Shown piece after piece: positions 5,706 through 30,431 of a stretch of 64,000 nt of DNA. The translations under genes were made by a program, and so were the position numbers. The notes below the pieces were generated by a model. The model was given only the letters and a program-made list of their open reading frames with translations, searched no databases and had not been told where the DNA came from. Position 1 is the first letter of the stretch, and each line of letters begins with the position of its first letter. This DNA is from Candidatus Komeilibacteria bacterium. Its GTDB lineage: Bacteria > Patescibacteriota > Patescibacteriia > UBA1558 > GWA2-36-10. The stretch is from assembly GCA_018656065.1 (NCBI GenBank), contig JABHZY010000015.1:5622-69621 (forward strand), read 5' to 3'.

Positions 5706-8645
5706 TTATTTCATATCACAAGCGCCTTTCATACCACATTGCTTGGAGCATTCGGTACAGCCGCCAAATTTTACCATGATGCCTTTCTTGCACTGTGGGC
5801 AGGTTTGGCCAACGGCAGTGCCGTAGTTGGCGTCGTCATCCTCAGGTAATTCTATATCAGCGTGTTTGCGAGGATTTTGCATTTCAGTAATTTCTTCTTT
5901 AACAGCTTCTTTGAATGGTTCCATTTGTTCTTGCTTGGTAACTTCTCGATCACCATTGTAAGCTAGATTTTTTTCTTCAGTATCAGCTTCGGTAGTAAGG
6001 ACTTGTTCATCACGAGAGCTATCTCTATAAATAGTCACTCCTTTACAACCAAGCTCGTAGGCTTTTTCATAAAGTTGAGCAGTTTGTTCAATAGTATAGT
6101 CAGCTGGAGCATTGGCAGTTTTAGAAATAGAGGAGTCAGTCCATTTTTGAACAGCGGCTTGGACTTTGACATGCTCTAGAGGATCTAGTTCCATAGCTGA
6201 GACAAAGAATTTTGGCAAAGAGCCATTACTCTTATATTCTTGAGCTAGTGGAATCAATACTTCATGGAAACCTAGTCTAGATTGTCTATAGAATTTAAAA
6301 GCATAGTAAGGTTCAATACCAGTTGAAGTTGATAACATTGAACCAACAGTACCAGTTGGAGCTTGAGTAGTTAAAGCAACATTACGGATTCCATTTTCTC
6401 TAACCATTTGTCTAACGTCTTCTGGCATTTTTTTCATAAAGCCAGAGTCTAGGAATTTATCAGCGTTGAATTTAGGGAAAGCGCCTTTTTCAGCAGCAAT
6501 TCTAGATGACTCTTTATACATTTCAGAGGTAATAGCTTTGTATAGCTCGTCTATAAAAACTAGAGATTCATCTGAACCATAACGCATGCGGAGTTTAATT
6601 AGCATTTCGCCTAAGCCTAGAGTACCACCGCCAACTCGACGTTCATTCTTTTGATTATCTTCGTTTTCTTGGAAATGATAGGGAGTTAAATCAATTATAT
6701 TATCTAAGAAGCGAGATAGAGTGCGAGCGGCTTTTTTAAGTTCCTCCCAATTTACTTCATAAGTTGGTCCTAATTCATCTTGACCATTTTCGTCTAGGAA
6801 TGAAGCTAGATATAAGTGGCCTAGATTACATACTCCCCAACCTGGTAAACCTTGTTCGCCACAGGGATTAGTACAAATTACTTTATTAAAATAGTATGAA
6901 TTAGATTCTTTATTATATCTTTCCATGAATACTATACCAGGTTCGGCACTAGCGTGAGCTGAAGCAACTAACTTATTCCAAAGATCACGAGCTTTGATAG
7001 TTTTGTAAACTTTAGTTGGGAAGCCAGCTTCTTTCCAAGCTTCTAGATCGCCAGTCCATTGTTGGTCATAGATATCTGAATAAGCAGGATCTTCATAGTC
7101 GGGGAATTCTAAATCCCAATTACTATCATTTTTAACAGCTTCCATAAAACCATCAGAAATCATGATTGAGATATTAGCATTTTCAATTTGACCAGCTACT
7201 GTTTTAGCAGAAATAAATTCAATCACATCTGGATGCCAATCCCATTGCATAAGCATCAAAGCACCACGACGTGAACCACCTTGTTCGATTAGGCCAGTGG
7301 CATAGGAAAATAGTCCGGCCCATGATACAGAACCAGATGATTTGCCGTGCACACCTTTAACATAAGCATAACGAGGACGAAGGGCTGACAAAGTCATGCC
7401 AACTCCACCGCCACGACTCATTACTTCTACCATTTGGTGTAGACTGTCTTTGACAATGGCTTTTCTAGAATCTAAGGGTGAAGGCAAAACATAGCAATTG
7501 AATAAAGTAAGATTGCCAGTGTAATTACCGTGTGGATCTACATTAGCGCCAGTCATGATACGTCCGCCAGGTTGAATATATTTTTTATCTAAAGCTTCAA
7601 AGAAATCTTCAAAATACTTTGTTTTATTTTCTTCAGTAGTCTCTACAGAAGCTACGGCTTTGGCAATACGACGATGAGCATCAGAAATAGCTTCGCGAGG
7701 TTTATCACATTTAAATATTTCTTGTTCAAATTCAAAATTATTTTCTTTGTCGGCATAGATGCCAGTTAGCATATGTAACTTAGCCTTATCAGCTGTGATC
7801 ATTTCTTTGATAATGCCTAAGTCCTTTTTAGGATATTTACGATCTTCTTTAGTAATAACAATTACTAGATCGCCGACATTAATATCATCTCGTTTGTCTT
7901 TAATAGAATAGCGATCTAAAAAAATAATTCTGCCTAATTCATCAAAATTAGTAGAATTATTAATAATATGTTTGGCTTGCTTAGAAAGATTAACGCCAGC
8001 TTCTTGTAATTTTTTTACTTCTTCAGAGGTAATTTGCTTACCTTCTTCCAAACGGATTTTTTTTCTTTGCTCACGATAGAGGATAAAGTGCTTAGCAGTA
8101 CTAGCCCAATTAGATTGGATTAGAATAATTTCAATAATATCTTGAATCTGCTCTACATTTGGAGTAAGGCGGTCGTTAAATTTGTGTTCTAGGATGGCAG
8201 TTACCACATCAGCCAATCTTTGAGCCTCTTGTCTATTATATTCCCCAGAAGTTTGTCCGCTTTTAAACAAAGCAGAAAAAATCTTGTCTTTATCAAAATC
8301 AACAACAGAGCCGTCTCTCTTTTTGATTTGTCTAACACCAGAAGCCATGTTTTTTTCTTTTACTAGCTTTTTCCCACGAGTTTTAAAGTAAATTTTAGCT
8401 ACTTCAATATGATTATTATCTAGTAGAGCTATATTAACGGCATTTCTAATATCATCAGTAGTAACAGTTTGATCAGCAGAGTAATTTTCTTCCAAATATT
8501 TGGTCACTTGTTTGGCAAGTTTGCCAGAAATTGGATTATCTTTTAGCCCCGTACTAGTAATAGCCTGAGAGAGAGAGGAGATTAGCTTAGATTGGTCAAA
8601 ATTTTCAGTTCGACCGTCTCGTTTTCTGATTTCTTTTAACTGCAT
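5706..8645 (-). CDS. nrdJ: Class II (adenosylcobalamin-dependent) ribonucleotide reductase with two N-terminal ATP-cone domains and a C-terminal Cys-rich zinc-ribbon tail
   Basis: 979-aa ORF. Two ATP-cone-like starts (IRKRDGRTENFD, IKKRDGSVVDFD), active-site TNPCGEQ, and C-terminal CPQCKKG...GGCTECSKQCG. Confidence 0.9.
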   Translation of the reverse strand: MQLKEIRKRDGRTENFDQSKLISSLSQAITSTGLKDNPISGKLAKQVTKYLEENYSADQTVTTDDIRNAVNIALLDNNHIEVAKIYFKTRGKKLVKEKNMASGVRQIKKRDGSVVDFDKDKIFSALFKSGQTSGEYNRQEAQRLADVVTAILEHKFNDRLTPNVEQIQDIIEIILIQSNWASTAKHFILYREQRKKIRLEEGKQITSEEVKKLQEAGVNLSKQAKHIINNSTNFDELGRIIFLDRYSIKDKRDDINVGDLVIVITKEDRKYPKKDLGIIKEMITADKAKLHMLTGIYADKENNFEFEQEIFKCDKPREAISDAHRRIAKAVASVETTEENKTKYFEDFFEALDKKYIQPGGRIMTGANVDPHGNYTGNLTLFNCYVLPSPLDSRKAIVKDSLHQMVEVMSRGGGVGMTLSALRPRYAYVKGVHGKSSGSVSWAGLFSYATGLIEQGGSRRGALMLMQWDWHPDVIEFISAKTVAGQIENANISIMISDGFMEAVKNDSNWDLEFPDYEDPAYSDIYDQQWTGDLEAWKEAGFPTKVYKTIKARDLWNKLVASAHASAEPGIVFMERYNKESNSYYFNKVICTNPCGEQGLPGWGVCNLGHLYLASFLDENGQDELGPTYEVNWEELKKAARTLSRFLDNIIDLTPYHFQENEDNQKNERRVGGGTLGLGEMLIKLRMRYGSDESLVFIDELYKAITSEMYKESSRIAAEKGAFPKFNADKFLDSGFMKKMPEDVRQMVRENGIRNVALTTQAPTGTVGSMLSTSTGIEPYYAFKFYRQSRLGFHEVLIPLAQEYKSNGSLPKFFVSAMELDPLEHVKVQAAVQKWTDSSISKTANAPADYTIEQTAQLYEKAYELGCKGVTIYRDSSRDEQVLTTEADTEEKNLAYNGDREVTKQEQMEPFKEAVKEEITEMQNPRKHADIELPEDDDANYGTAVGQTCPQCKKGIMVKFGGCTECSKQCGMKGACDMK

Positions 8646-8719
8646 GGGGGTATATTTTTATTATTTTTATTGATTTTATCGTTTCAGATAAAAAAAGGAC
8701 AAAAATTTTTAGCTCTTTT

Positions 8720-8767
8720 TTACTATATCTTGTGTCCAGAATCATTATAGCACACAAGATGTAGGTT
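8720..8767 (-). promoter_or_regulatory. Two NrdR boxes upstream of nrdJ
   Basis: ttaCtAtATcTtGtgt (8720-8735) matches the acaCwAtATaTwGtgt consensus at 13/16. acaCaAgATgTaGgtt (8752-8767) matches at 12/16. Box starts are 32 bp apart, the typical tandem spacing. Confidence 0.6.
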
Positions 8768-8839
8768 TGCCAAATTTTCGTCTTTTATTTTTATTTTTGC
8801 CTCAAAATCACTTTAATTTGAGCCTATACATTATAGTGG

Positions 8840-9118
8840 ATGAAAAAACATTTGTCCAATTATGACATTTTTGGGGCTATTGTCACAAGAAAAACTATCT
8901 GCTATGATGTTGGCATGGCTCAATTTTTCAAAAAATTCAATAAAAAGAAGAAAGGTCCACGTCGTGGACCAAAGTCAAAGGTAAAAGAGGATATTATGGA
9001 TCCTATTCTTTATAATGGAGGTTTGGATAAGGAAAAGTTTCCTCAATTGCCATTAGAAAAGAGAGAAAAGCCGGTGGAAGATATAGAAAATCCACTTAAC
9101 CAACGTAGAAGTTTGTAA
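8840..9118 (+). CDS. Hypothetical small basic protein (true start may be the internal ATG giving MAQFFKKFNKKKKG)
   Basis: 92-aa ORF followed by a strong terminator. No recognisable motif. Confidence 0.35.
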   Translation: MKKHLSNYDIFGAIVTRKTICYDVGMAQFFKKFNKKKKGPRRGPKSKVKEDIMDPILYNGGLDKEKFPQLPLEKREKPVEDIENPLNQRRSL

Positions 9119-9144
9119 AGATACTAGAATATTTATAGACAAAA

Positions 9145-9176
9145 CAAAAACCCCGTACATTAGAACGGGGATTTTT
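9145..9176. terminator. Bidirectional intrinsic terminator
   Basis: CCCCGT (9151-9156) / ACGGGG (9165-9170), flanked by an A-run and a T-run. Lies between convergent ORFs. Confidence 0.7.
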
Positions 9177-9179
9177 ATT

Positions 9180-9314
9180 TTAGCTGCAAAGACAATCTTT
9201 AGCTTGTAACCACCAAGTGGCTAATACTACATAAGTAGTTAATAGGAAGCCTATTAGCAAGTAGAGTATTATCCAAGAGAAGGTAAGCTTAGAATCTTTT
9301 TCTTTTTTTGCCAT
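9180..9314 (-). CDS. Unlisted 44-aa small membrane protein downstream of the MBL gene
   Basis: My translation is MAKKEKDSKLTFSWIILYLLIGFLLTTYVVLATWWLQAKDCLCS: a charged N-terminus and one TM helix. Starts 31 nt after the MBL stop and ends at the terminator. Below the ORF-track size cutoff. Confidence 0.35.
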   Translation of the reverse strand: MAKKEKDSKLTFSWIILYLLIGFLLTTYVVLATWWLQAKDCLCS

Positions 9315-9345
9315 AATTTTTTATTTAAGCTTAGTTATTAAATTT

Positions 9346-10701
9346 TTATTTTAATGTTAAAGGATTGTTAAATTTTAATACTTTCGTTTCAAAATTTAAC
9401 TGTTCTGCTATTATTATAGCAAATTTTTCCAAAACCTGCTTGTCACCATGATTTAGCAGTATTTGTTTGGGTTGTTTGAAGCCTCCTAACCATTGTAATA
9501 GGGCAGATTGATCGGCGTGAGCTGAGAAGCCATCTATTTGATCAGCCACTGCTCTTACTTCTATTTTTCGTCCATAATAATCAAAATCAAAAGCACCATT
9601 TAATATTTTATGGCCCAAGGTACCTGGTACTTGGAAACCCATGAATAAAATATTATTATTTCTATCACCAATATATTGGGAGAGGTGATGTATCATTCGT
9701 CCGCCTTCCATCATTCCAGAGCCAGCCATAATAATTTTAGGAGGCGGTACGGTATTTATTTCTTTAGATTGTCGGATGTGGTTAGTAATTTTTAAATGAG
9801 GAAAGTCAAAAATATCTCGATCTCGTTTCATAACATCTTGGGCGTCTTCATTTAGATAATCAAGGTGTTTTTTATAGACTCGAGTAGCTTCGGCGGCCAT
9901 AGGGCTATCTAGAAAGACTGGCACTGCAAAATCTAAATGAGATTCATAATAGTCATTCAAGACCTTAAGAATGTCTTGGGTTCTTTCTAAAGCAAAAATT
10001 GTAATTAATAACGTGGAACGATTAAGGGTGGCTCGTTGAACAGCTTTAATTAATTCTTTATCACGAGTTTTAGTATCATGATGAGCGCGGTCACCATAGG
10101 TGCCTTCACAAATTACATAGTCAGCCTGTTTAATGATATCTATGTCTTTGACTAGCGGCATATCTTCTCCACCAATGTCTCCGGAAAATACTATAGTCTT
10201 ATTGCCAGCTTTAATTTCCACTATAGATGAACCGAGAATATGGCCAGCGTTGTGAAGTTTGAAACTAATATCAGGATTTAAATCTTGCTTCTCATAATAA
10301 TTTAAAGGCACAAAACTTTTCATAGCCCTATTTAAATCTTTTTGCCCAAACATTTTTGGCATTTTTTTACGAAAAGCTTTTTCATCCATTATAAAATAAC
10401 TATCCTCCAAGACTATTTTAGCTAAATCAATAGTAGCTCCAGTAGCATAGATGGGTCCGTTGTATCCTTTGGAGTAGAGCTTTGGTAAACGACCACAATG
10501 ATCTAAATGAGCGTGAGTCAGAATGACAGCGTCTACATTTTGTGGATCAAACAAAAAACTATCCCAGTTTTTGACATAGTTATCCCAATTACCTTGCCAC
10601 ATTCCACAATCAACTAAAATACGATAACCATCTATATTTAGCAGATGACATGAGCCAGTCACTTCTTCGGTAGCACCGTATGATGTTAGTTTTATTTCCA
10701 T
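9346..10701 (-). CDS. MBL-fold beta-CASP family hydrolase (RNA-metabolising, RNase J/CPSF-like)
   Basis: 451-aa ORF with HAHLDHCG motif 2, and beta-CASP-like middle and C-terminal HAD/H motifs (FSAHADQ, LNHGD). Confidence 0.8.
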   Translation of the reverse strand: MEIKLTSYGATEEVTGSCHLLNIDGYRILVDCGMWQGNWDNYVKNWDSFLFDPQNVDAVILTHAHLDHCGRLPKLYSKGYNGPIYATGATIDLAKIVLEDSYFIMDEKAFRKKMPKMFGQKDLNRAMKSFVPLNYYEKQDLNPDISFKLHNAGHILGSSIVEIKAGNKTIVFSGDIGGEDMPLVKDIDIIKQADYVICEGTYGDRAHHDTKTRDKELIKAVQRATLNRSTLLITIFALERTQDILKVLNDYYESHLDFAVPVFLDSPMAAEATRVYKKHLDYLNEDAQDVMKRDRDIFDFPHLKITNHIRQSKEINTVPPPKIIMAGSGMMEGGRMIHHLSQYIGDRNNNILFMGFQVPGTLGHKILNGAFDFDYYGRKIEVRAVADQIDGFSAHADQSALLQWLGGFKQPKQILLNHGDKQVLEKFAIIIAEQLNFETKVLKFNNPLTLK

Positions 10702-10796
10702 CCTCCTAAGATTTTTTTATTTTAGTTTTAACTAAGAAAAGTATAACATTTTTTCCTTTTTTATGCTAAGCTGAAGGTAGTTTTTAAATTAAAATT

Positions 10797-12581
10797 ATGA
10801 AATCTTTTTTATTATTTTTAGCTTTTAGTATTGGTCTACTGTGGGCGCCATCAGCTTTGGCTAATTACGGAGAGACAATAGATAGATATCAAGTCGATAT
10901 AGAAATTTTATCAGACTCTAGTATTAAGGTAACTGAGATTATTGATTATAATTATGGTGCTAATAGCAAGCATGGTATTTATCGTGATATCCCTATGCCA
11001 ACTAGGCATATTTCTGAAAATCCTTTTGAAATAAAATATGTTAAAGTTAAAAATGAAGTAGGTAAAGTATATAGAAAAGAAACTTCTCGACAGTTAAACA
11101 ATTTTAGAATAAAAATTGGCGATCCTAATAAGTATGTTAGCGGGATCAAAACTTATATTATCTCTTATACAGTCCATGGTGCATTTTCTTTTTCTGAAAA
11201 TATCGATGGATTTTTTTGGAATGCCCTTGGTAGTGAATGGGAGGTAGACAGCATAGAAAATATTATAATTAATACTTATTTACCAGAATCTATAGATAAG
11301 GATCAAGTTAGGTCGGCTTGTTATTTTGGATTTCGTGGGAGTAATAAAGAATGTCAGGGGCCATACTACGGAGTATTAGGAGAAGATAGGATTGGAAATA
11401 TAGAGCAAGTCATTTTTCGAGTGCCTAAATTATTTTATACTCAAGGAGCCACTGTAAATTTATATTTTCAAAAAGGTATAATAAGTGAACCACCATTACC
11501 AAATCTTCAGCTAGCGTATTTTAAATTATATGGACCATTGATCTTGCCGATCCTTAGTTTCTTACTGATGCTTTATTTTTGGTATCATCATGGTCGTGAT
11601 CCTAAGGGTCGAGGTAATATTATAGTTCAATATGATTCACCTAAAGATATGATGCCAGCAGAAGTAGGTTCTCTATATGATGAGAGGGTGCATAGTAAAG
11701 ATATTTCAGCTGAAATTATACATTTAGCTATTTTAGGATATATAAAGATTACTCGGATTAAGAAAAAACACGCATTTTCTAAAGATGATTATGTTTTAGA
11801 AAAATTAAAAGAACCAGCTGATCTGCCTAGGCATTATCAGATTAAGTTAATGAATAAATTATTTGGCAGCCCATTAAGTTCTTTTGATCTTAAAGAAATG
11901 AATTTTACTTTGTCTACTGGAGCCAAACAGGTTATTTTACTTTCAGATTTGAAGACAAAGTCTCGTAAATGGATGAAAGAAATTGAATCTGACATATATA
12001 AATTAATGGTTAAGAAAAAATATTTTCATAAAAATCCGCATAAAACCAGACAAGTTTATATGATAGCAGCTGTTGCTTTAATTTTTAGTGTTAAATTATT
12101 TGGAGCTTTTGCTGAAAATGTTGTACAAGGTGACGATTTAGGAATTGTTATTTGGATGATAGCCTTGTTTACATCTTTATTGATTGTAATTATTTTTGGT
12201 ATGGTGATGCCAAAGAAGACTATCAAGGGGGTTTTTGCTAAAGAACATATTTTAGGTCTTAAGGAATATATTAGAGTTGCGGAAAAACATCGTATTAAAT
12301 TTCATAATACTCCTTATAAAGATCCTAAGAATTTTGAAAAATTATTACCTTATGCTATGGCCTTTGGCTTAGAGAAAGAGTGGGCTAAGCAATTTGAAGG
12401 AATCTATAACGAAGAGCCTAATTGGTATGTAGGTAGTGGCGGGGGTCATTTTAGCGCTAGTAGTTTTGGCTCTAGTTTAAATGGTTTTAGATCTTCTGCT
12501 TCTCGTGTAGCTAGCACTAGTTCCTCTGGCGGAGGTAGTTCTGGCGGCGGAGGCGGCGGAGGCGGCGGTGGAAGCTGGTAA
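10797..12581 (+). CDS. DUF2207-like membrane protein with Gly-rich C-terminal tail
   Basis: 594-aa ORF. Signal peptide, large extracytoplasmic N-domain, several TM helices, and C-terminal SSGGGSSGGGGGGGGGGSW, which is typical of DUF2207 proteins. Confidence 0.65.
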   Translation: MKSFLLFLAFSIGLLWAPSALANYGETIDRYQVDIEILSDSSIKVTEIIDYNYGANSKHGIYRDIPMPTRHISENPFEIKYVKVKNEVGKVYRKETSRQLNNFRIKIGDPNKYVSGIKTYIISYTVHGAFSFSENIDGFFWNALGSEWEVDSIENIIINTYLPESIDKDQVRSACYFGFRGSNKECQGPYYGVLGEDRIGNIEQVIFRVPKLFYTQGATVNLYFQKGIISEPPLPNLQLAYFKLYGPLILPILSFLLMLYFWYHHGRDPKGRGNIIVQYDSPKDMMPAEVGSLYDERVHSKDISAEIIHLAILGYIKITRIKKKHAFSKDDYVLEKLKEPADLPRHYQIKLMNKLFGSPLSSFDLKEMNFTLSTGAKQVILLSDLKTKSRKWMKEIESDIYKLMVKKKYFHKNPHKTRQVYMIAAVALIFSVKLFGAFAENVVQGDDLGIVIWMIALFTSLLIVIIFGMVMPKKTIKGVFAKEHILGLKEYIRVAEKHRIKFHNTPYKDPKNFEKLLPYAMAFGLEKEWAKQFEGIYNEEPNWYVGSGGGHFSASSFGSSLNGFRSSASRVASTSSSGGGSSGGGGGGGGGGSW

Positions 12582-21152: not shown

Positions 21153-21371
21153 CTATTTTACAGGTGGATGAATCTGTTTACCATCATCATCAGAGATAAT
21201 AATAGCGTTAACTGGACAGCTTTGAGCTGATTGGAGGATAGTAGCTTCATCATCTCCCTTGGGATCCTTGATAATAGCAATGCCTTCGTCATCTAATTCA
21301 AAGGTGTTTGGAGCTACTGCGACGCAAGTAGCCACACTAGTACAAAGCTCTCTGTCTACTTCAATTTTCAT
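21153..21371 (-). CDS. Small ferredoxin (single-cluster Fer4_13-like)
   Basis: 72 aa. C..TC.AVAP...F......SCP pattern. Confidence 0.7.
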   Translation of the reverse strand: MKIEVDRELCTSVATCVAVAPNTFELDDEGIAIIKDPKGDDEATILQSAQSCPVNAIIISDDDGKQIHPPVK

Positions 21372-21395
21372 ATATAAATATAATTAATTATAATA

Positions 21396-21472: not shown

Positions 21473-21501
21473 TTGACAAAAGCCATTTTTCATGCTATAC
21501 T
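21473..21501 (+). promoter_or_regulatory. Strong sigma-70 promoter (TTGACA-N17-TGcTATACT)
   Basis: TTGACA at 21473-21478, TG at 21493-21494, TATACT at 21496-21501. Confidence 0.6.
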
Positions 21502-21507
21502 GTCTTT

Positions 21508-21562
21508 GTAAGTTAGAATTGGCAACAAATTCCGAAAGGAGTTGTGCCAATTTTTTATTTTT
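21508..21562 (+). ncRNA. Candidate ~55-nt small RNA or attenuator: single hairpin with GAAA tetraloop plus U-tract
   Basis: AATTGGCAACAAATTCC-GAAA-GGAGTTGTGCCAATT (21517-21552), then TTTTTTATTTTT. Starts about 7 nt after the promoter above. No ORF. Confidence 0.4.
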
Positions 21563-21657
21563 CTAAACTCTTTTAGAAAAATAGCCCCAATATTTAATAA
21601 TTAATTTTCTAACTTATTAAAAAACTTCTAATTAAATTTTATTAAGAAGAATAAAGT

Positions 21658-21801
21658 ATGCTAAATAATAATTTAAAATCATTTAAACTGGTCATCAAAC
21701 CAGGTGATCGGCAATTAAGGAATAGTGATTACTGGGCAATAATTACTTTGTGTTCAGTGGGTGCGTTTACTCTTCTTTTTATAGTAGGAGGATCTATTTA
21801 A
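21658..21801 (+). CDS. 47-aa small membrane peptide, paralog 1 (KSF...WAI family)
   Basis: My translation is MLNNNLKSFKLVIKPGDRQLRNSDYWAIITLCSVGAFTLLFIVGGSI. Shares KSF at residues 7-9 and WAI at 26-28 with the next ORF. Confidence 0.45.
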   Translation: MLNNNLKSFKLVIKPGDRQLRNSDYWAIITLCSVGAFTLLFIVGGSI

Positions 21802-21823
21802 CAAAAATAAAAACAAAAATAAT

Positions 21824-21949
21824 ATGAAAGAGTGTAAATGTAAATCTTTTCAGCTAGCGGGATTTCGAGCTACTCCTGAAATAGAAAGTCATGAGAATTG
21901 GGCAATATTAAGTCTATTTCTCCTTAACCTAACATTTTGGTACGTTTAA
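21824..21949 (+). CDS. 41-aa small membrane peptide, paralog 2 (KSF...WAI family)
   Basis: MKECKCKSFQLAGFRATPEIESHENWAILSLFLLNLTFWYV. Preceded by a (YAAAAA)n tract. Confidence 0.45.
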   Translation: MKECKCKSFQLAGFRATPEIESHENWAILSLFLLNLTFWYV

Positions 21950-21971
21950 AAAAATAAAAACAAAAACAAAA

Positions 21972-22034
21972 ATGTCACAATTAATGTATGTCTTGCTAAT
22001 TTTTAGTTGGACACCAATCACCTTGTATTGTTAA
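21972..22034 (+). CDS. Possible 20-aa hydrophobic mini-ORF
   Basis: MSQLMYVLLIFSWTPITLYC. Preceded by the same (YAAAAA)n tract as paralog 2. Very short, so weak. Confidence 0.2.
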   Translation: MSQLMYVLLIFSWTPITLYC

Positions 22035-22170
22035 AAATACAATCTAGGTGCCTCTCAATTAATACTTGAGATGAAAACAAAAATAAAAACAACCTGCCTC
22101 GACTTGACCCGCGTCGCTGCGAGGCATAAGTCGATTCAAGGTGGGAAAAGAACATTAAAAATTTAAAATT

Positions 22171-22347
22171 ATGTCATTTTGGAAAAATCTATTCGGAGCT
22201 TCCAAAAAGGAAACTCAAATAATGGAGGAGCCAGAGCATGACCTAAGGGTAGCCCCTCCTGATGATCTGATGATCGTCAAAGATGAAGAAGAATCTAATA
22301 TCTCAGAAGATAAAAAAGAAAATTTAGATAATAGGGACTCTCCCTGA
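22171..22347 (+). CDS. 58-aa acidic hypothetical protein
   Basis: MSFWKNLFGASKKETQIMEEPEHDLRVAPPDDLMIVKDEEESNISEDKKENLDNRDSP. Just under the ORF-track cutoff. Confidence 0.35.
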   Translation: MSFWKNLFGASKKETQIMEEPEHDLRVAPPDDLMIVKDEEESNISEDKKENLDNRDSP

Positions 22348-22426
22348 TAAGAAATATTAGCTTTCTATCTTATATGGAGAGCTTGGAAAATTTGAAAGAG
22401 TTAATTAATAAAATAAAAATAAACAT

Positions 22427-22657
22427 ATGGGATTTGGAATGAGTGGTCTTGGGCCTGATGCGGCGAAAAAGATATCTATAAGTGAAGAAGAAAGTAAAAT
22501 ACTTATAGAAAAACATATAGCCAAAAAAGCAGCAGCTAAGTCTGCGCCAGAAGCTGTTGTTGATAAAGCGGCAATTCAAGAGCAGGAAGCAATTCAAGAA
22601 GAGGAAGAAGTTGGTCAAATGGAAGATATTCGTGAACAAATTGACAGAAGTTCTTGA
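22427..22657 (+). CDS. 76-aa acidic/Lys-rich hypothetical protein
   Basis: Track ORF. Preferred over the antisense 22370-22666 ORF, whose translation is low-complexity F/L/N junk. Confidence 0.4.
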   Translation: MGFGMSGLGPDAAKKISISEEESKILIEKHIAKKAAAKSAPEAVVDKAAIQEQEAIQEEEEVGQMEDIREQIDRSS

Positions 22658-22845
22658 TTCTAACAAAGAACCCTCAGAGATAAAAAGTGCTTAAAATTAT
22701 ATGTAGCAAAAACAAAAACAAAAATTAAAAGCTAATCCTAGGCTAGATAATTAGGATAATAAAAAAACTCCCGAAAAATGGAGAAAATAAAATTTTAAAA
22801 AGATTTTTAGAGTAAAAATAAACTCTAAACAAAAATTAAATAAAA

Positions 22846-22895
22846 AACTTTGTTATATAACAGAGTTTTTTATTTTGGCTTAAAAATGTTATAAT
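22846..22895 (+). repeat. Terminator-promoter junction (hairpin + T-run + TGtTATAAT) ahead of korA
   Basis: AACTTTGTTA-TA-TAACAGAGTT (22846-22867), TTTTTTATTTT, TG at 22887-22888 and TATAAT at 22890-22895. Confidence 0.6.
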
Positions 22896-22925: not shown

Positions 22926-24665
22926 ATGCAAAACAAAAATAATTTGACTTGGAAGATCGCCGGTGAAGCCGGTTTTGGTATTAAGTCAGCTGGTATGATG
23001 TTTGGAAAAATATTTATGCGAGCTGGTTACGAAATTTTTGATTTTACAGAATATCCATCGCTAATTAGAGGTGGACACAACACTTATCAATTAGTAGTAG
23101 ATACCAGGCCAGTCAATAGTGTATTCAAAAAAAATGATATTTTGGTGGCTCTGAATCAAAATACCATTAAACAAAATTTAGCAGAGCTAAACAGTGGCGG
23201 AGCTCTAATTTATGACAGTGATAAAGTAAAAGTAAGTCCTGCTAAACTAAAAAATGATCATGTTCAAAACATTGGTATTCCTTTGACTAGTATAGCTAAG
23301 GAGGCTGGTGGCGAACTCATGAGAAACGTAGTGGCCTTAGGAGCTACTATGTATTTAGTTGGTCAAAAACTTACTATTGCTAATAAGGTGGTTAAAGAGA
23401 CTTTTTCTAAAAAAGGAAAAAAGATTGTAGACAATAATCTTAAGGCTCTAAAAGCTGGCTATGACTTTGTAAAAGAAAATAGTAAAGATGAATTTATGTG
23501 TCAGCTACCAACTTTGGCAGCCAAAGATAATATTTTTATTACAGCTAATGAATCTATGGCTCTGGGTGCAGTAGCTGGAGGTCTAGGATTTTACGCTGCT
23601 TATCCAATGACCCCTTCTTCATCAATACTTCATTATTTGGCTAAGATTGCCAGTAAGACAGGATTAGTAGTTAAGCATGCTGAAGATGAAATATCAGTCG
23701 CTAATATGGCTTTAGGGGCTTCTCATATGGGAGCTAGGTCAATGGTGGCTACCTCTGGAGGAGGTTTTGCCTTAATGACTGAAACTTTAGGTTTGATGGG
23801 CTTAACCGAAACACCAATGGTACTTATTAATGTGCAAAGAGGAGGTCCAGCAACTGGACTACCTACTTGGACAGAGCAGGCTGATTTACAATTTATGCTT
23901 CACGCTGCTCAAGGTGATTTTCCTAGAATAGTAATGGCTCCCGGAGATGCTGGCGAAGCCTTTGAGATGGGCCACCAAGCACTTAATTGGGCCGATATGT
24001 ATCAAGCGCCAGTACTTATTTTATCTGACAAATTGATTGGCGAGGGGAATACTACAGTGCCAAGATTTAATACTAAAAATGTAAAAATAAACAGAGGTAA
24101 GATTTTGACTCAAGCACAGTTAAGTAAGATAAAAGAGTATGGTCGTTATAAAGTAACTCCAGATGGTATTTCACCAAGAGCTTTGCCGGGTATGAAGGGT
24201 GGGCTTTTTATTGCTAATAGTGATGAGCACGATGCCTATGGATTTTCTAACGAAGATAGTCAGAATCGTATTGACCAAGTTGATAAAAGATATAGAAAAT
24301 TAGATCAGTTTAGAAAAATAATGCCAAAGCCTTTGATCTATGGAAATCCTAAGGCTAAAAAAACTGTAGTTTTTTGGGGATCAAATAAAGGTGTAGTTTT
24401 AGATTCTTATGTAGCTCTGCCTGACAAGATAAAGTCTAAAATTAGAATAATGCAGTATCAATATCTATGGCCTTTTGATGCAGATTTTACTAAAAAGATT
24501 TTGGATAGCTCTAAAGACATATTACTTATAGAAAATAATCCTAATGGTCAGCTGGCTAATCTTATTGCTCAAGAAACTGGCATTATGATTGAAAATAAAT
24601 TACTCAAATATGATGGACGCCCTTTCTTTAGGGAAGAAATAATTAGTGCTTTAAAAAAATTATAA
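22926..24665 (+). CDS. korA: 2-oxoacid:ferredoxin oxidoreductase, alpha subunit (gamma+alpha fused)
   Basis: 579 aa. The N-terminal gamma-like domain (KIAGEAGFGIKSAG) is followed by an alpha domain (AAYPMTPSS). Confidence 0.85.
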   Translation: MQNKNNLTWKIAGEAGFGIKSAGMMFGKIFMRAGYEIFDFTEYPSLIRGGHNTYQLVVDTRPVNSVFKKNDILVALNQNTIKQNLAELNSGGALIYDSDKVKVSPAKLKNDHVQNIGIPLTSIAKEAGGELMRNVVALGATMYLVGQKLTIANKVVKETFSKKGKKIVDNNLKALKAGYDFVKENSKDEFMCQLPTLAAKDNIFITANESMALGAVAGGLGFYAAYPMTPSSSILHYLAKIASKTGLVVKHAEDEISVANMALGASHMGARSMVATSGGGFALMTETLGLMGLTETPMVLINVQRGGPATGLPTWTEQADLQFMLHAAQGDFPRIVMAPGDAGEAFEMGHQALNWADMYQAPVLILSDKLIGEGNTTVPRFNTKNVKINRGKILTQAQLSKIKEYGRYKVTPDGISPRALPGMKGGLFIANSDEHDAYGFSNEDSQNRIDQVDKRYRKLDQFRKIMPKPLIYGNPKAKKTVVFWGSNKGVVLDSYVALPDKIKSKIRIMQYQYLWPFDADFTKKILDSSKDILLIENNPNGQLANLIAQETGIMIENKLLKYDGRPFFREEIISALKKL

Positions 24666-25616: not shown

Positions 25617-26510
25617 ATGATGTTTTTTCGGAACAGACAACCCATTCGACTACGCTCTCGTTCGAGCCTGAGCGACGAGGTCGTCAGGCCTCAGAGCCGA
25701 ACGGCAGGGCAAGCGGGATTCACTATGCTGCAATTGATTATTGTGGTAGCTATTATTTTGGTATTATCGGCAGCTGTTTTTACGTGGATTGATCCAGTAG
25801 CCAAGATAGGGGAGACTAAAAATAATAAAAGAACACAAGACATAAATATTATAGCTACGGCCATTGCCGAATATAGTGGAGATCACAAAGGAGTTTTGCC
25901 AGTTATAGGAGAAGTGGCTACTAGCACTAAAAAAGTTTTATGTTCATCTCAGAGTGGCTCAACTTTGGACTGTGATGGCGATAGTGCTATTTGTTTGAAG
26001 GTTGATGATCCGGATTTTTACAAATATTTATCTGAATTTCCTTATGATCCAGATAAAGATAGCAGTGAAGACACTGGCTATTATTTATTTAAAGATAGTA
26101 ATGGACAATTAGAGGTGGGTGCTTGTGATACTTATGATAATGAGTCTATTTCTCGCACATTATCAATTAAGGTAACTTGTCCGGCTTATGCTGGAGGGGA
26201 GTGTTGGTATGTATCATATGATAGGGTAGGAGATGATTGTGACGATGTTTGTGCTGAGTATAATTTAACTTGTGTAAATAATGCTGTTTATGGCCCAGAT
26301 GTTGATAGTGAAGAAACGGGTTTTTGTGCATTAAACCAAGCTTTTGGTTATATGGGTGAGTTGAGATGTGCCTCTGGCTGTTCTTCCAGTGATAGTTCCT
26401 CTGGACCACCGGCAAATCAAAATGGTGCTTCAGCCTGTTATTATCGTACACATCCGGTTGTTTGTTCTGGCTCAACTTCTGGATTTTTCTCAGTTTGTCC
26501 TTGCGAGTAG
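25617..26510 (+). CDS. Prepilin-like protein with long unusual leader and Cys-rich C-terminal domain
   Basis: AGQAG/FTMLQLIIVVAIILVLSAAVF resembles the G/FTLIE class III signal, with Gln at +5. The C-terminal 130 aa contain many Cys. Confidence 0.6.
   Translation: MMFFRNRQPIRLRSRSSLSDEVVRPQSRTAGQAGFTMLQLIIVVAIILVLSAAVFTWIDPVAKIGETKNNKRTQDINIIATAIAEYSGDHKGVLPVIGEVATSTKKVLCSSQSGSTLDCDGDSAICLKVDDPDFYKYLSEFPYDPDKDSSEDTGYYLFKDSNGQLEVGACDTYDNESISRTLSIKVTCPAYAGGECWYVSYDRVGDDCDDVCAEYNLTCVNNAVYGPDVDSEETGFCALNQAFGYMGELRCASGCSSSDSSSGPPANQNGASACYYRTHPVVCSGSTSGFFSVCPCE
25629..25718 (+). repeat. GC-rich nested-palindrome element lying inside the 5' coding end of the prepilin-like gene
   Basis: Contains CATTCGACTACGCTC (the family-C core) and CCTGAGCGA (its reverse complement). 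Nested stems are CGAC-GAG-GTCG, GCCTGA...TCAGGC and CGTTCG...CGAACG. Confidence 0.65.
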
Positions 26511-26603: not shown

Positions 26604-29600
26604 ATGATTTTAGATCGAATTCAACACTATCTAGGTATTATTTTTTTCACTACCTTAGTACTTACTCAAGCTTTAATTTTTGTAGCGGTTAGCGCTTCTA
26701 ATAATGATGAAACATTGCCAGTAGTTTTTGTAGAGCCCATTAGTGAAAATATGAATATTGGAGATAGCGTTTATTTTCAAGCCATGATTTCTGATCAAGA
26801 AGATCAGCAATATGATTTGGTTTATTTTAATCTTAAAAATTTCGCCACAGGTTTAGATGAAAATTATCAAGCTAGTTTGGTAGATGATGGCACTTGGACA
26901 GCCCAAAATATTTGGGATACTGACGATGCTTATCAGCCAGGACAATATTATTTATCAGTTGTAGCTCATGAGAATTTAGGTGATTTACCAGTTGATATTT
27001 ATTACTCTCAAGAAAAACTTATTAATCTAAATGGAGAATATCAAATTGCTGCTTTGGGTGATCCAGTATTTTTTGGTTATCCTGTAGCTGGTGATAGTAT
27101 TAATGCTATAACAGAGCCTAATTTAACGGCTGTATTGTATATAGATACCTTGATTAGTCAACAGGTAGGTGATATGAGATTTGAATTACGAGGGCAGATT
27201 GAAACTGACGACGACGACGGTAATCCAACATTTTTTGTATTACCCTTTAATGGCTTCGCTGATCATATTGAATCAGGCGGTGATTACCCTGGTTATGACA
27301 GGTGGGAATCTGATATTAGTATATTACTTGTGGAGGAGGGTTTTTATTCTATAACTGTTACTGCAACGGGCGGTGGTGTAATTTTAGACCCTAGTGTAGA
27401 GGTTTTTGAAATATTCAGACCCATGCAGGGAATACCACTAACTGGAGATATAGATGTCATTTCGCCAATATCAGGACAAGAATTTAGTATTACAGATACT
27501 ATGAATATCCAAGTAGAGACAGCTCCGGAAGATTCTGAAGCATATGCCGTCGTGGCAGAAATTCATCATAATAACGCTGGTCTTATTTTAGAGACAGTAT
27601 TAGCATTAGATGGTAATCAGCACAGCATTTTAGTAGATTTTGATGAGCATATAGTAGGTGATGATGGAAGCGGAGGCACGGATTTAGACAGTATTTTTTT
27701 TACAGGCGATTATAATATACAATTTTATTTAGCATCACGTGATGATCCGAATGCAGATAGAATTGCAAAAGATAGAATTGCTTTTTCTATATTTGATGAA
27801 GAGCCGGAACCAGTTTATGAAATAATTCCAAATAGTCCTTTGCCTGACTCTATTGTGGAAGGTAATGATTTAGCTTTAAATTTTACTACTAGTTTTGAGG
27901 CTGACAATTTTAATTTTGTTTTAGTTAAGGATGGAGATACCACTGAAGGAATAGACCACGTTATTGATTTAGTAGCCGGTGGTACTTCCTGGCAATATAG
28001 TGTCTCGGCCGAGAATAATGGTTTAAGCAATGGTAGATATATATTGTCAGCTTCTGTTGATAATATAGAGGGAGCTACGGTTAATTTAGAGCCATTTACT
28101 TTTTATTGGGAAATTACAGAGGATGAAGTTGAGCCAAATTTAATTTCTTATCAACCGCCTGGAGGACAATTAGGATTGGGAGGCGTATTAGTAGCCAGCT
28201 CTAATATCTTAGATATTGATTTTATTTTACGCGGTGTAGCAGGCATGGAGAATGCATATTATTTGGAACACAACTTAGTTGATTGTAGTAGCGAAATATT
28301 TTTTACGTCTGAGATGAGAGAACTTATGGAGCTCGCAGGCCATGATTATTGTTTTTATTCTACTATTTCGTCTGATGTAGCTACAGAGATAGTAAATGGG
28401 AATTATAATTTTTATATTGAATATATAACAACGGGGTTTACTAGTTCTAGTACCCCGGTGCTTTTAACATATTTTAATGAACTAAGTTTAGATGAGGATT
28501 TATTCGGTACCTTGGAAATTGATTCTGCATTTGCAGGAGAGAGCTCAATAGAAATTACGTTTGCAGACCAAATTTACGAAGGTGTGTTTTTCCTTGAAAA
28601 TATAGAAGATCAAACACTTTATAATTTTGATAATATTGCTTTTTCATTACAGAATAATTATTACGTAGCGCTTGAGTTTAGTCGTATTAGCATTCCTATA
28701 GGCACCTATAAAATTTATTTTAAAACATTTATAGATGGTGAGGCTAAATGGACAAATCACTTACCTTATTTTTTTAAAGTAGATGTTGATGAATCTAAAT
28801 TTATACCTGAGAATGAAGAAGAATTATCTGAACCTGGATCATATAGAATTTATAGATTGGTTGATGAAAAAAGTGGTGATTTTGATTTATTAATTGCTTC
28901 AAACTTATCTAGTGATAGTCTAGAAGTAGAATTAAAACATTTAGATTCTGAAGAAGTCTTTAGTTTTATTGTTGAACAATCTTCTTGGGCAGCGATGGAT
29001 GCCTTGGGTGTGGCTCATGGACTTATTACTGATGTACCTTTTGCTTATATTCGGGAAGGAGTTGATTCTACTCTTTTGCCAAATGGTTCATATAGTCTTT
29101 CAATTGGAAATACTCCGGTTGCTTCATTGGTAGTTAGAATAAATAATAGAACAGAAGATGAAAATGAAGACAATGAAGAAGAACAAAATGATTCAGAAGA
29201 AAGTGATGATCATTCAATAGCAGAAGATATAGTGATTGATTATTATAGTACTTGTATAGAACAAGGCATATCAGATGAAGAGACCTGTATGTGGTTTAGG
29301 GCAACTATGGATTTATTAGATCAGACTTGTATAGAACAAGGTATATATGAAGATGTGGCTTGTGAAGATTACTTATTTAGAATTGAAACTGATTTAGAAT
29401 GTCAGGCAAATAATGTGATTGATAGAGAAGAATGTAAAAATTATTTATTAGAAAAATATGGAGGGCAAGTTGATTGTCAGTTGGATGATATGAATTTATG
29501 TAATAGCATTTTGCGAAATGAATATCTCAATAGATTGGTATCTGGACAGCGTTTGAGTAATAATATTAATCAGGCGGTTGATTCATTGCTCGGTAAAAAT

Positions 29601-30431
29601 ATTAGTACACAAGAATTAAGTGATAGTTTAGAGAGTAGAGGTATAGATAGTCTAGAGGTTTTACCGCTACCACCAAGTAATAGTACTAAAGTCTTAGTAG
29701 CTAAAGCACAAAAAGAAATAGTCCTTGAAGAAAAAGACAAGTTAACCATTCTCAATCAGGCCGTTATTATTTTAGATGCAGATGGCGATGGGCTTTCTGA
29801 TGATTTAGAAAAATATTATGGTACGGAAGTTAATAACTCAGATACTGACGGAGATGGTTATTCAGATGGTGAGGAAATTAGCAATGGTTATGATCCTTTG
29901 GGGCCTGGTAAATTAATTAAAGAGAGAACAGATTTTGATAAAGTTACACTAGATGATGAAAAAATTATCGAACAACCAAAAGTAAAATCTAATAAGATTG
30001 ACAGGGTTATGAGAGTGACTGATGTTGATACTTCTGAAGAAGAATTAAAGTTGACTGGTAAGGCAGAGGCTAATTCCTGGGTTAATCTATATTTATATAG
30101 TGGCTTACCATTAGTAATGACTACTAAAACAGACGCTAGTGGTAACTGGTCATATGATATTAAAAATTCTTTAACTGATGGTCATCACAGAGTTTTTGTA
30201 ACAGTTAATGATGATACAGGTAAGATAGTTAAGCAATCAAGACCAATATCATTCTTAATTAAAGAGGCAAAAGCGGTGACAGCTGATGATTATTTTGATG
30301 AAGCCTCTAGTTCCACAGCGGTAAATAATCTATTTATATATTATATATTAGGAGGAGCCTTTTTAGTATTTTTAGCCTTAGGAGCTATAATTTATCTGCA
30401 TAAAGGTAAAAATCAAAATTTAGAAATATAA
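26604..30431 (+). CDS. 1275-aa cell-surface protein (signal/anchor N-terminus, Cys-rich repeats, Ca-binding TSP3-like repeats, Ig-like domain, C-terminal TM anchor)
   Basis: DADGDGLSDDLE...DTDGDGYSDGEE, repeated TCIEQGI..E..C, and the C-terminal TM LFIYYILGGAFLVFLALGAIIYL. Confidence 0.7.
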   Translation: MILDRIQHYLGIIFFTTLVLTQALIFVAVSASNNDETLPVVFVEPISENMNIGDSVYFQAMISDQEDQQYDLVYFNLKNFATGLDENYQASLVDDGTWTAQNIWDTDDAYQPGQYYLSVVAHENLGDLPVDIYYSQEKLINLNGEYQIAALGDPVFFGYPVAGDSINAITEPNLTAVLYIDTLISQQVGDMRFELRGQIETDDDDGNPTFFVLPFNGFADHIESGGDYPGYDRWESDISILLVEEGFYSITVTATGGGVILDPSVEVFEIFRPMQGIPLTGDIDVISPISGQEFSITDTMNIQVETAPEDSEAYAVVAEIHHNNAGLILETVLALDGNQHSILVDFDEHIVGDDGSGGTDLDSIFFTGDYNIQFYLASRDDPNADRIAKDRIAFSIFDEEPEPVYEIIPNSPLPDSIVEGNDLALNFTTSFEADNFNFVLVKDGDTTEGIDHVIDLVAGGTSWQYSVSAENNGLSNGRYILSASVDNIEGATVNLEPFTFYWEITEDEVEPNLISYQPPGGQLGLGGVLVASSNILDIDFILRGVAGMENAYYLEHNLVDCSSEIFFTSEMRELMELAGHDYCFYSTISSDVATEIVNGNYNFYIEYITTGFTSSSTPVLLTYFNELSLDEDLFGTLEIDSAFAGESSIEITFADQIYEGVFFLENIEDQTLYNFDNIAFSLQNNYYVALEFSRISIPIGTYKIYFKTFIDGEAKWTNHLPYFFKVDVDESKFIPENEEELSEPGSYRIYRLVDEKSGDFDLLIASNLSSDSLEVELKHLDSEEVFSFIVEQSSWAAMDALGVAHGLITDVPFAYIREGVDSTLLPNGSYSLSIGNTPVASLVVRINNRTEDENEDNEEEQNDSEESDDHSIAEDIVIDYYSTCIEQGISDEETCMWFRATMDLLDQTCIEQGIYEDVACEDYLFRIETDLECQANNVIDREECKNYLLEKYGGQVDCQLDDMNLCNSILRNEYLNRLVSGQRLSNNINQAVDSLLGKNISTQELSDSLESRGIDSLEVLPLPPSNSTKVLVAKAQKEIVLEEKDKLTILNQAVIILDADGDGLSDDLEKYYGTEVNNSDTDGDGYSDGEEISNGYDPLGPGKLIKERTDFDKVTLDDEKIIEQPKVKSNKIDRVMRVTDVDTSEEELKLTGKAEANSWVNLYLYSGLPLVMTTKTDASGNWSYDIKNSLTDGHHRVFVTVNDDTGKIVKQSRPISFLIKEAKAVTADDYFDEASSSTAVNNLFIYYILGGAFLVFLALGAIIYLHKGKNQNLEI

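Follow-up and report, generated by a model that had tools for sequence, protein, structure and literature searches.

A putative operon of four conserved micro-proteins between the ferredoxin and korA genes of a Candidatus Komeilibacteria genome

Can a stretch of chromosome that holds only very short reading frames be a functional unit of its own, and if so, of which kind? The question is raised by a gap of 1.5 kb in a 64-kb stretch of DNA (the window) from a genome of Candidatus Komeilibacteria (Patescibacteria, candidate phyla radiation, CPR), which is AT-rich with ~33% GC. The gap starts at a ferredoxin gene (21153-21371, minus strand) and extends to korA, whose product KorA (22926-24665) has 91% identity to that of a Candidatus Komeilibacteria metagenome-assembled genome (MAG) from Saanich Inlet. 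Five open reading frames (ORFs) lie on the plus strand of the gap. An initial annotation, made from the sequence alone, had seen in the first three a family of small membrane peptides, possibly type I toxin-like, bacteriocin-like or regulatory, that may be expressed through A-rich leaders independent of Shine-Dalgarno (SD) motifs.

The reading that we favor, with a probability of roughly 0.6, is that the gap is a self-contained operon of four conserved micro-proteins, the products of ORF1 to ORF4, with initiation at A-tracts. The proteins would form a small membrane complex, and a link of this complex to redox processes is a guess. The reading frames are as follows.

21658-21801, plus strand: ORF1, 47 amino acids (aa), predicted tail-anchored single-pass membrane micro-protein with a predicted helix, 22 species-level loci
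21824-21949, plus strand: ORF2, 41 aa, paralogue of ORF1 with KSFxL...ESHENW and then a transmembrane (TM) segment, ~20 loci
21972-22034, plus strand: ORF3, hydrophobic peptide of 20 aa, conserved in 21 loci
22171-22347, plus strand: ORF4, acidic protein of 58 aa with net charge -8, conserved in 16 or more loci
22427-22657, plus strand: ORF5, acidic, 76 aa, variable fifth cistron, weakly conserved and in close relatives only (MBT4209410.1 at NCBI)

Conservation of the four micro-ORFs

ORF1, ORF2 and the 20-aa ORF3 are present as the initial annotation had described them. A homologue search with the single sequence of ORF1 returned ORF1 itself as the sole match. Syntenic loci were fetched via KorA, with one genome per species, and their small ORFs were then searched; relatives were found only after family profiles had been built from these loci. 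The four micro-ORFs stand in the order ORF1-2-3-4 in 22 species-level genomes of Komeilibacteria/Parcubacteria, whose KorA identity falls to ~61% and each of which has one syntenic copy of the locus, and also in further metagenome contigs (including L100, L103 and L137). Loci retrieved independently through ORF1 homologues have the same ORF order. No micro-ORFs were found near KorA homologues below ~56% identity. Numerous contigs from metagenomes match the window at 100% identity.

The initial annotation had named frame-breaking indels and a ratio of nonsynonymous to synonymous substitutions (dN/dS) near 1 as the findings that would speak against genes. Instead, the indels are in frame and the Nei-Gojobori method, applied to the five closest species, gives a dN/dS of 0.06-0.31 for ORF1, 0.08-0.56 for ORF2, 0.08-0.64 for ORF3 and 0.15-0.20 for ORF4. 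Across the four ORFs third codon positions change most often. The relative L007, ~85% identical to the window, keeps all ORF frames and has all its larger indels between ORFs: the 47 codons of ORF1 are kept, ORF2 has an in-frame deletion of 6 nucleotides (nt), ORF3 has 2 substitutions, and the N-terminal half of ORF4 is conserved. Judged from these substitution patterns, ORF1 to ORF4 are genuine genes under purifying selection.

ORF1 and ORF2 had been aligned without gaps, with KSF at residues 7-9 and WAI at 26-28, and this alignment stood up well. It has 9 identities in 41 positions (M1, K7-S8-F9, L11, W26-A27-I28 and L31) with near-matches at 24 (D/E), 29 (I/L) and 30 (T/S), and the best ungapped BLOSUM62 score of 38 was reached in none of 5000 shuffles that kept the N-terminal and hydrophobic segments. 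The DNA string TGGGCAATA, which had likewise been pointed out, is indeed common to ORF1 (within 21726-21741) and ORF2 (within 21892-21907). When the two families were compared with hhalign the probability was 96.4% (E 1.4e-9, 38 columns), and by these alignments the ORF1 and ORF2 families are true paralogues. The ORF1 consensus reads SF[KR]L[VI][VI][KR]PGDxxL[RK]xxDYWA and the ORF2 consensus MKExKSFxLxGxxCxPxVESHENWAIL, with a TM segment after each; the ORF2 of relatives is shorter by 2 codons and has KSF at residues 5-7. An AlphaFold2 (AF2) model of ORF1, built from the family alignment, has a helix at residues 22-46 with pLDDT 87-95, and the hydropathy maxima of ORF1, ORF2 and ORF3 are 2.4, 2.2 and 1.9, respectively. 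With conservation, paralogy, purifying selection and a confidently predicted C-terminal helix, the idea of a family of small membrane peptides is well borne out.

In lineages that lack ORF2 (L059; P0047-49, P0051) ORF1 has a second N-terminal segment, KSFKx..HP. The second SFxL motif makes these proteins look like fusions, and no other observation hints directly at cooperation between the N-termini of ORF1 and ORF2.

ORF3 of the window is MSQLMYVLLIFSWTPITLYC, and the family consensus is MxxxxYxLLLFSWAPxTLYC with a conserved C-terminal Cys; the exact ORF3 sequence is absent from all protein collections searched. ORF4 carries the motifs MSFWKxLxG, QIIxEPEHDL, PPDDLMVI (family consensus PPDDLMV) and a C-terminal NKDSP. 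Its AF2 model has a pLDDT of 63 and is without secondary structure, so that the protein is predicted to be disordered. At NCBI, ORF4 is annotated as a hypothetical protein of Ca. Komeilibacteria (MBT4209411.1), and ORF1 and ORF2 are unannotated for this MAG. Tryptic cleavage of the micro-proteins would give, among others, SFKLVIKPGDR, ETQIMEEPEHDLR and VAPPDDLMIVK.

A profile search of 5.8 billion clustered proteins gave 50 clusters of the ORF1 type and 79 of the ORF4 type, all of them unnamed or "hypothetical", and every named source was a member of the Patescibacteria. An exhaustive HMMER search of 1.84 billion representatives (E <=0.001) gave 15 matches, 12 of which are proteins of 42-69 aa; the remaining three are proteins of 262-962 aa with short or repeated matching stretches. 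ORF1 to ORF5 had no match in Pfam, NCBIfam, PADLOC or PHROGs, and the best match of the micro-ORF proteins in a PDB sequence search had an E of 0.5. No relatives of the micro-ORFs were found in the viral contigs searched, and a mobile or viral origin was rejected for this reason.

Could the peptides be secreted bacteriocins, precursors of ribosomally synthesized and post-translationally modified peptides (RiPPs) or signalling peptides, with ORF1 to ORF3 exported or modified? The small size, the conserved C-terminal Cys of ORF3 and NKDSP of ORF4, and the pilin-like gene and giant surface proteins encoded downstream would suit such a role. The alignments contain no double-glycine or other leader-cleavage motif, however, and at no locus is there an ABC transporter, a C39 peptidase, an immunity gene or a modification enzyme within ~5 kb. 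In addition, the hydrophobic "core" is the most conserved part of the peptides, not a hypervariable one, and is modelled by AF2 as a helix of TM length. We therefore regard this explanation as highly improbable, and the bacteriocin-like option of the initial annotation is not upheld.

ORF5 had no match in most related loci. Its C-terminus resembles that of an 88-aa ORF at the same position in L122 (pairwise E 2e-4). Antisense to ORF5 lies a Phe/Leu-rich ORF of 98 aa with a TTG start (22370-22666, minus strand), in all likelihood a shadow ORF due to the A-rich coding strand. The initial annotation had stated that the 1.5 kb contains no ORF longer than 76 aa, and this holds for the plus strand but, given the 98-aa frame, not for the minus strand.

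Promoter, leader RNA and terminator

The micro-ORFs are flanked by predicted transcription signals, all on the plus strand.

21473-21501, plus strand: operon promoter, TTGACA (21473-78), 17-nt spacer, TG (21493-94) and TATACT (21496-21501), 11/12 of consensus
21508-21657, plus strand: structured 5' leader, from folding and conservation
21508-14, plus strand: leader element GUAAGUU
21515-21554, plus strand: leader hairpin P1, terminator-like
21551-56, plus strand: U-run
21558-21581, plus strand: leader hairpin P2
21584-90, plus strand: unpaired GCCCCAA
21611-17, plus strand: leader element AACUUAU
21624-29, plus strand: ACUUCU, pairs with AGAAG at 21645-49
22838-22880, plus strand: intrinsic terminator of the micro-protein operon, inverted repeat with 19-nt arms that are 95% complementary, then a T-run
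22887-22895, plus strand: separate korA promoter of the extended -10 type, TGTTATAAT, from conservation

The operon promoter is of the extended -10 type and is the best-scoring site of the region. Its motif TTGACAAAAGCnTTTTTTnnTGCTA is unique in the window and is found in all related loci, nearly base for base and including the T-rich spacer. At the other end, nearly all loci have a GC-rich hairpin with a U-run after the last micro-ORF and before korA, and in nearly all of them the extended -10 motif aaaaaTGTTATAAT follows downstream of this terminator; in L137 it precedes a pilin-like gene. A terminator followed by a separate promoter for the next gene indicates that the micro-ORFs probably form their own transcription unit. 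Beyond what the initial annotation had described, ORF3 and the 58-aa ORF4 belong to one conserved unit with promoter, structured leader and terminator.

The leader has a minimum free energy (MFE) of -35.7 kcal/mol (z = -5.86), and none of 200 shuffled sequences was equally stable. Its structure is seen in the window and in the leaders of L020-L049 and L100. P1 and the U-run are predicted in all 23 leaders, with -9.6 to -22.9 kcal/mol followed by 5-8 U; the base of the stem, AAUUGG/CCAAUU, is constant and the inner stem is wholly different among species. An A-T to G-C change between the window and L007 is compensatory. The 7-mer at the 5' end pairs with the distal site in the MFE structure of 11 loci with long leaders, and in L025 both sides of this pairing are switched (AUAGCUA/UAGCUAU). 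In the long leaders the GUAAGUU-AACUUAC pairing encloses P1 and a second hairpin, giving a three-way junction with a conserved GCCCCAA unpaired. A further helix just before the ATG of ORF1, ACUUCU/AGAAG in the window and CUUCC/GGAGG in relatives, covers a purine patch. In species with short leaders this ATG comes only ~25 nt after the U-run, so that transcription of ORF1 must run through the hairpin from the same promoter. The leader is a candidate for a new cis-regulatory RNA, either an attenuator or a small RNA with dual output. Searches with Rfam (gap region at the gathering threshold and with E relaxed to 10, plus 12 related loci) and with ARAGORN gave nothing relevant.

When metagenomes were scanned for the combined pattern of promoter and leader, mostly the same operon was recovered, and the few unrelated matches covered the promoter part only. 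On the reverse strand of L132 (match at 6281-6320), a promoter with the GUAAGUU-hairpin-U-run module stands before the gene of a secreted protein of >1128 aa. By this match a related organism appears to have put the promoter-hairpin module to use before at least one further gene.

The position of the cluster upstream of korAB in most loci, behind a structured leader with a terminator-like hairpin, would also fit regulatory upstream ORFs or leader peptides, where the act of translation and not the peptides would control korAB. However, all four ORFs are under selection for their amino-acid sequence, korA is set apart from them by a strong terminator and has a conserved promoter of its own, and the cluster occurs without korAB in L105 and L137. 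There is, in our estimate, very little chance that control of korAB is what the ORFs are for.

Type I toxin-like peptides had also been suggested by the initial annotation. In such a toxin-antitoxin-like locus the mini-peptides would damage membranes and be controlled by antisense RNA, and the tandem copies would stem from duplication. Known type I toxins include Ibs, Ldr, Hok, TisB and Fst, and the locus resembles these in its tiny hydrophobic single-TM peptides, its tandem paralogues and a structured 5' untranslated region that could occlude the first start, here that of ORF1. ORF1, with its helix at 22-46, is also a protein of <60 aa with one helix, and the 20-aa ORF3 is similar to Ibs-type toxins in size and composition. 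In contrast to such toxins, which are often multicopy or mobile, patchily distributed and weakly conserved, the locus is single-copy, syntenic, vertically conserved in at least 22 species and under purifying selection, and it has no homologues in viral contigs and no match in PADLOC. Outside the subclade that lacks it, the acidic ORF4 always accompanies the peptides. The antisense promoters that the initial annotation had asked for were sought with a consensus scan: no more than 3 of 23 loci have a minus-strand promoter-like site of at least 10/12 inside the cluster, the positions of these sites are not homologous, and the minus strand of the cluster in the window reaches 9/12 only. We consequently think it most improbable that the operon is a toxin locus.

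AAAAAY tracts and translation initiation

If ORF1 to ORF4 are an operon, how are its very short internal cistrons translated? The initial annotation had proposed that start codons are directly preceded by hexamer-phased A-tracts. Four such tracts were located by motif scan.

21802-21823, plus strand: (YAAAAA)n tract abutting the ORF2 start
21947-21971, plus strand: (YAAAAA)n tract abutting the ORF3 start
22073-22094, plus strand: third tract, after the ATG of a non-conserved 31-aa ORF
22707-22730, plus strand: fourth tract with no conserved start adjoining; its equivalent in L020 is the A-rich 5' flank of the operon terminator

The positions agree with those given earlier, except that the second tract starts at 21947 and not at 21948, and the claim about start codons applies to ORF2 and ORF3 but not to the other two copies. 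With up to 1 mismatch, AAAAAYAAAAAYAAAA has 8 matches in the window compared to 0.65 expected, and 7 of these 8 are in the 1.5 kb, all on the plus strand. In the 40 nt before the ATG, a tract was found for ORF3 in 17 of 22 loci, for ORF2 in 5 of 21, for ORF4 in 5 of 16 and for ORF1 in 0 of 22, as compared to 1 of 232 control ORFs of at least 100 aa. In most cases the tract ends 0-7 nt from the start codon; in two ORF4 cases it is 21 nt upstream. Related loci totalling 219 kb contain 35 tracts on the coding strand, 31 of them inside the micro-ORF cluster, and only 4 on the opposite strand. The spacers around the tracts have diverged beyond alignment, often with species-specific hairpins. In the window, the tract and start region are predicted by folding to be unpaired between hairpins.

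SD motifs (GGAG, GAGG or AGGA at -18 to -4) precede none of the 57 genes of the window and only 3 of 102 ORFs of at least 150 aa in relatives. Starts in this clade generally have a moderately A-rich context, and 73% of the genes have T at -1. Before ORF3 the tract places A at -3, -6 and -11 to -16, and upstream of ORF2 and ORF3 the frequency of A is 0.8-1.0 at -3, -6 and ~-11 to -14, as compared to ~0.45-0.6 in 200 control genes. In Flavobacterium johnsoniae, which also lacks SD motifs, adenines at -3, -6, -12 and -13 promote initiation experimentally (PMC6847099). Since the lineage has essentially no SD motifs and the tract abuts starts, our interpretation is that the tract is a site at which SD-independent initiation is reinforced for very short internal cistrons, and it is a candidate for a sequence-defined translation enhancer. 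The proposal of SD-independent A-rich leaders is in this respect partly confirmed: starts without SD motifs and rich in A were found, but the absence of SD motifs is genome- and clade-wide and does not set these ORFs apart. Their distinctive feature is the conserved hexamer-phased tract, which is tied mainly to ORF3.

Alternatively, the tracts may be sites for RNA processing or RNA-binding proteins (an A-rich RNase, or Hfq-like binding of ARN repeats), or elements at the DNA level such as bent DNA or an origin. Two window copies are away from starts, hairpins just upstream of many tracts would suit stabilised processing products, the tract fits an (ARN)n pattern, and the region is a switch point of gene strand. 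On the other hand, the tracts are strand-specific (35 versus 4) and mostly end 0-7 nt from an ATG, the cumulative GC-skew minimum of the window is elsewhere (~8-11 kb) with no cluster of DnaA boxes at the gap, and a lineage with no SD motifs and A-rich start contexts points to a direct role for extra adenines (PMC6847099). As a full account of the tracts this alternative seems rather unlikely, and roles in processing and in initiation are not mutually exclusive.

A replication origin (oriC) at the micro-ORF gap, prompted by the strand switch and the A-tracts, was rejected on account of the skew minimum and the DnaA boxes; at 21.4-22.9 kb there is one such box, with 1 mismatch. The only other exact A-tract match, at 8783-8798 on the minus strand, is intergenic and near the GC-skew minimum, and the window at ~8000-11000 could be a replication-origin-like switch.

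The spacer upstream of ORF4 has the following parts.

22035-22170, plus strand: ORF3-ORF4 spacer with a hairpin (22053-22071), the A-tract at 22073-22094, a GC-rich hairpin (~22093-22145) and the start box

The ORF4 start box of the window, GAACATTAAAAATTTAAAATT, is at 22150-22170, and in nearly all loci a GA(A/T)CATTAAAA(n)TTTAAA box is found 12-25 nt upstream of the ORF4 start codon, with variable hairpins between. In the window and in L022 the GC-rich hairpin is inserted between the A-tract and the box. The box may serve as an internal promoter or belong to the initiation region. In L036-L038, which are without ORF4, the A-tract downstream of ORF3 precedes a mini-ORF of two codons (ATG-AAA-TAG/TAA or ATG-GAC-TAA) and the string AGCTCAGAGGCC, which is conserved.

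Comparable initiation elements are the S1-dependent A/U-rich or (CAA)n leader enhancers. The locus shares with A-rich initiation in Bacteroidetes (Baez et al. 2019, PMC6847099) the lack of genomic SD motifs, A at -3, -6 and -11 to -14, and a start region predicted to be unpaired. Unlike Bacteroidetes- or S1-type regions, the tract is a discrete, hexamer-phased (AAAAAY)2-4 element whose sequence is conserved across species and which is concentrated in one operon (31 of 35 copies), and the clade's generic start context also differs.

Gene neighbourhood and a possible membrane complex

Upstream and divergent from the micro-ORFs are genes for peroxiredoxin (Prx), patatin, superoxide dismutase (SOD), NifU, NifS, ferredoxin (Fdx) and, in some loci, Fur. 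Downstream on the same strand are genes for KorA and KorB, preceded in some loci by DUF1439, then a pilin-like gene and genes for giant surface proteins. The micro-ORF unit always adjoins the divergent ferredoxin/peroxiredoxin/SOD/NifSU cluster (with Fur or a TrpR-like protein). In L105, from a distant lineage, Fur-Fdx-Prx-NifS is divergent from an ORF1-like gene and korAB is not adjacent. In L137, from another distant lineage, TrpR-like-Fdx-Prx is divergent from five micro-ORFs, which are followed by a terminator, a TGTTATAAT promoter and a pilin-like gene, with no korAB. These five (L137:1819-2700) are a 69-aa ORF1-like frame with duplicated SFxL, a 45-aa ORF1-like frame, a Cys-rich ORF2-like frame of 54 aa, an uncalled ORF3-like frame of 29 aa and a 54-aa ORF4-like frame. 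From L105 and L137 it follows that the constant partner is the divergent regulator/ferredoxin/peroxiredoxin cluster and not KorAB. KorAB as a functional partner, which had been considered, is weakened both by these loci and by the terminator and separate promoter in between.

The constant divergent neighbours lead to a guess, held with low confidence, that the micro-ORFs are an accessory or regulatory membrane module for redox, oxidative-stress or iron homeostasis. In this operon ORF1 and ORF2 would be tail-anchored, with an N-terminal segment of ~22 aa carrying the SF[KR]L strand motif in the cytoplasm, followed by the C-terminal TM helix. Together with the half-length hydrophobic ORF3 and a peripheral, motif-rich ORF4 they could make up one small membrane-associated complex. 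The A-tracts would act as unstructured landing pads for ribosomes, a reinforced form of the A-rich SD-independent context, and, placed between flanking hairpins, would let the tiny internal cistrons start translation efficiently and independently. A more far-reaching version, which we offer as tentative, combines a four-subunit membrane complex, a leader RNA with a three-way junction and an embedded terminator-like hairpin, an (AAAAAY)n enhancer in place of SD motifs and a tie to the redox island into a micro-protein expression module of one Patescibacteria clade.

Several observations weigh against a four-protein operon with A-tract initiation. Expression and translation of ORF1 to ORF4 are deduced from sequence, the complex is drawn only from co-conservation and one fusion-like variant, and the redox-stress link comes from gene neighbourhood alone, in genomes that are small and highly syntenic. 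The set is not strictly invariant among loci, since ORF2 is missing in L032 and L059 and ORF4 in one subclade (L036-L041). For several species pairs dS is near saturation. The AF2 monomer models are of low confidence for the first 21 residues of ORF1 and for ORF4 over its whole length. Two of the four tracts in the window adjoin no conserved start, and in L031 and L032 the tract is inside the ORF3 frame and is read as a Lys-rich N-terminus (MKTKTK...). The tract may accordingly have another or an additional role, in RNA processing, protein binding or as the A-flank of a terminator.

Two further known systems are close in kind. Small membrane proteins such as KdpF, CydX, AcrZ, MgtS and MgrB are subunits or regulators of larger membrane complexes. 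Like these, the micro-proteins measure 20-50 aa and have one hydrophobic helix; they are encoded on the chromosome, inherited vertically and under purifying selection, and proteins of this type usually escape annotation. They have no sequence relationship to them (Pfam, NCBIfam and PDB were negative), and in contrast to them three membrane micro-proteins and an acidic disordered partner have an operon of their own and are not an add-on to that of a large partner. In Bacillus subtilis, Fur regulates the small basic proteins FbpA/B/C, together with the small RNA FsrA. The resemblance here is one of context, a cluster of very small proteins and a short promoter-proximal hairpin RNA near Fur-family, iron and redox genes; the present proteins are membrane-bound or acidic and not basic, have no detectable homology to FbpA/B/C, and no Fur box overlaps the operon promoter of the window.

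Small membrane proteins and A-rich, SD-less initiation are already known kinds. The operon itself has so far been seen only in a Komeilibacteria-centred clade of Patescibacteria and has no match in the curated libraries searched. Its conserved leader, with promoter, 5' seed, terminator-like hairpin and distal complement, is a candidate for a new cis-regulatory RNA, and the locus is a natural test case for start-codon choice at very short internal cistrons in a lineage without SD motifs. Tiny CPR genomes keep a 1-kb operon of micro-proteins only, behind one of the strongest-looking promoters of the window, and this retention together with the promoter argues for an important function that is invisible to annotation.

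Two loci that might be taken as evidence of a mobile cassette, L006 and L019, were rejected as such. These two contigs are otherwise identical to the window, and unrelated sequence is joined exactly at the positions corresponding to 21654 (L006:1-581) and 21367 (L019). L019 ends (1-22) in a CCCCAAAA repeat of the C4A4 type at a coverage of 1.7, a repeat typical of spirotrich ciliate telomeres, and both loci are probably chimeric assemblies.

In five loci with a divergent Fur-family gene (L022, L030, L031, L032 and L059) a near-perfect Fur-box-like palindrome, TTATTGATAATCATTATCAATAA, is situated just upstream of the fur start and ~45 nt from the -35 element of the micro-ORF promoter. The window has no adjacent fur; TATAATTAATTATAAT is found directly upstream of its ferredoxin start (21380-21395), and no Fur box overlaps its operon promoter. 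Downstream of korB, a 297-aa protein (25617-26510) has a weak prepilin-type N-terminal motif with sub-threshold matches of the N_methyl/GspG type, and is followed by a 1275-aa protein (26604-30431), the equivalents of which in relatives have Big_13/DUF4215 matches. This pair of a pilin-like and a large protein stays downstream of the micro-ORF cluster even in loci without korAB.

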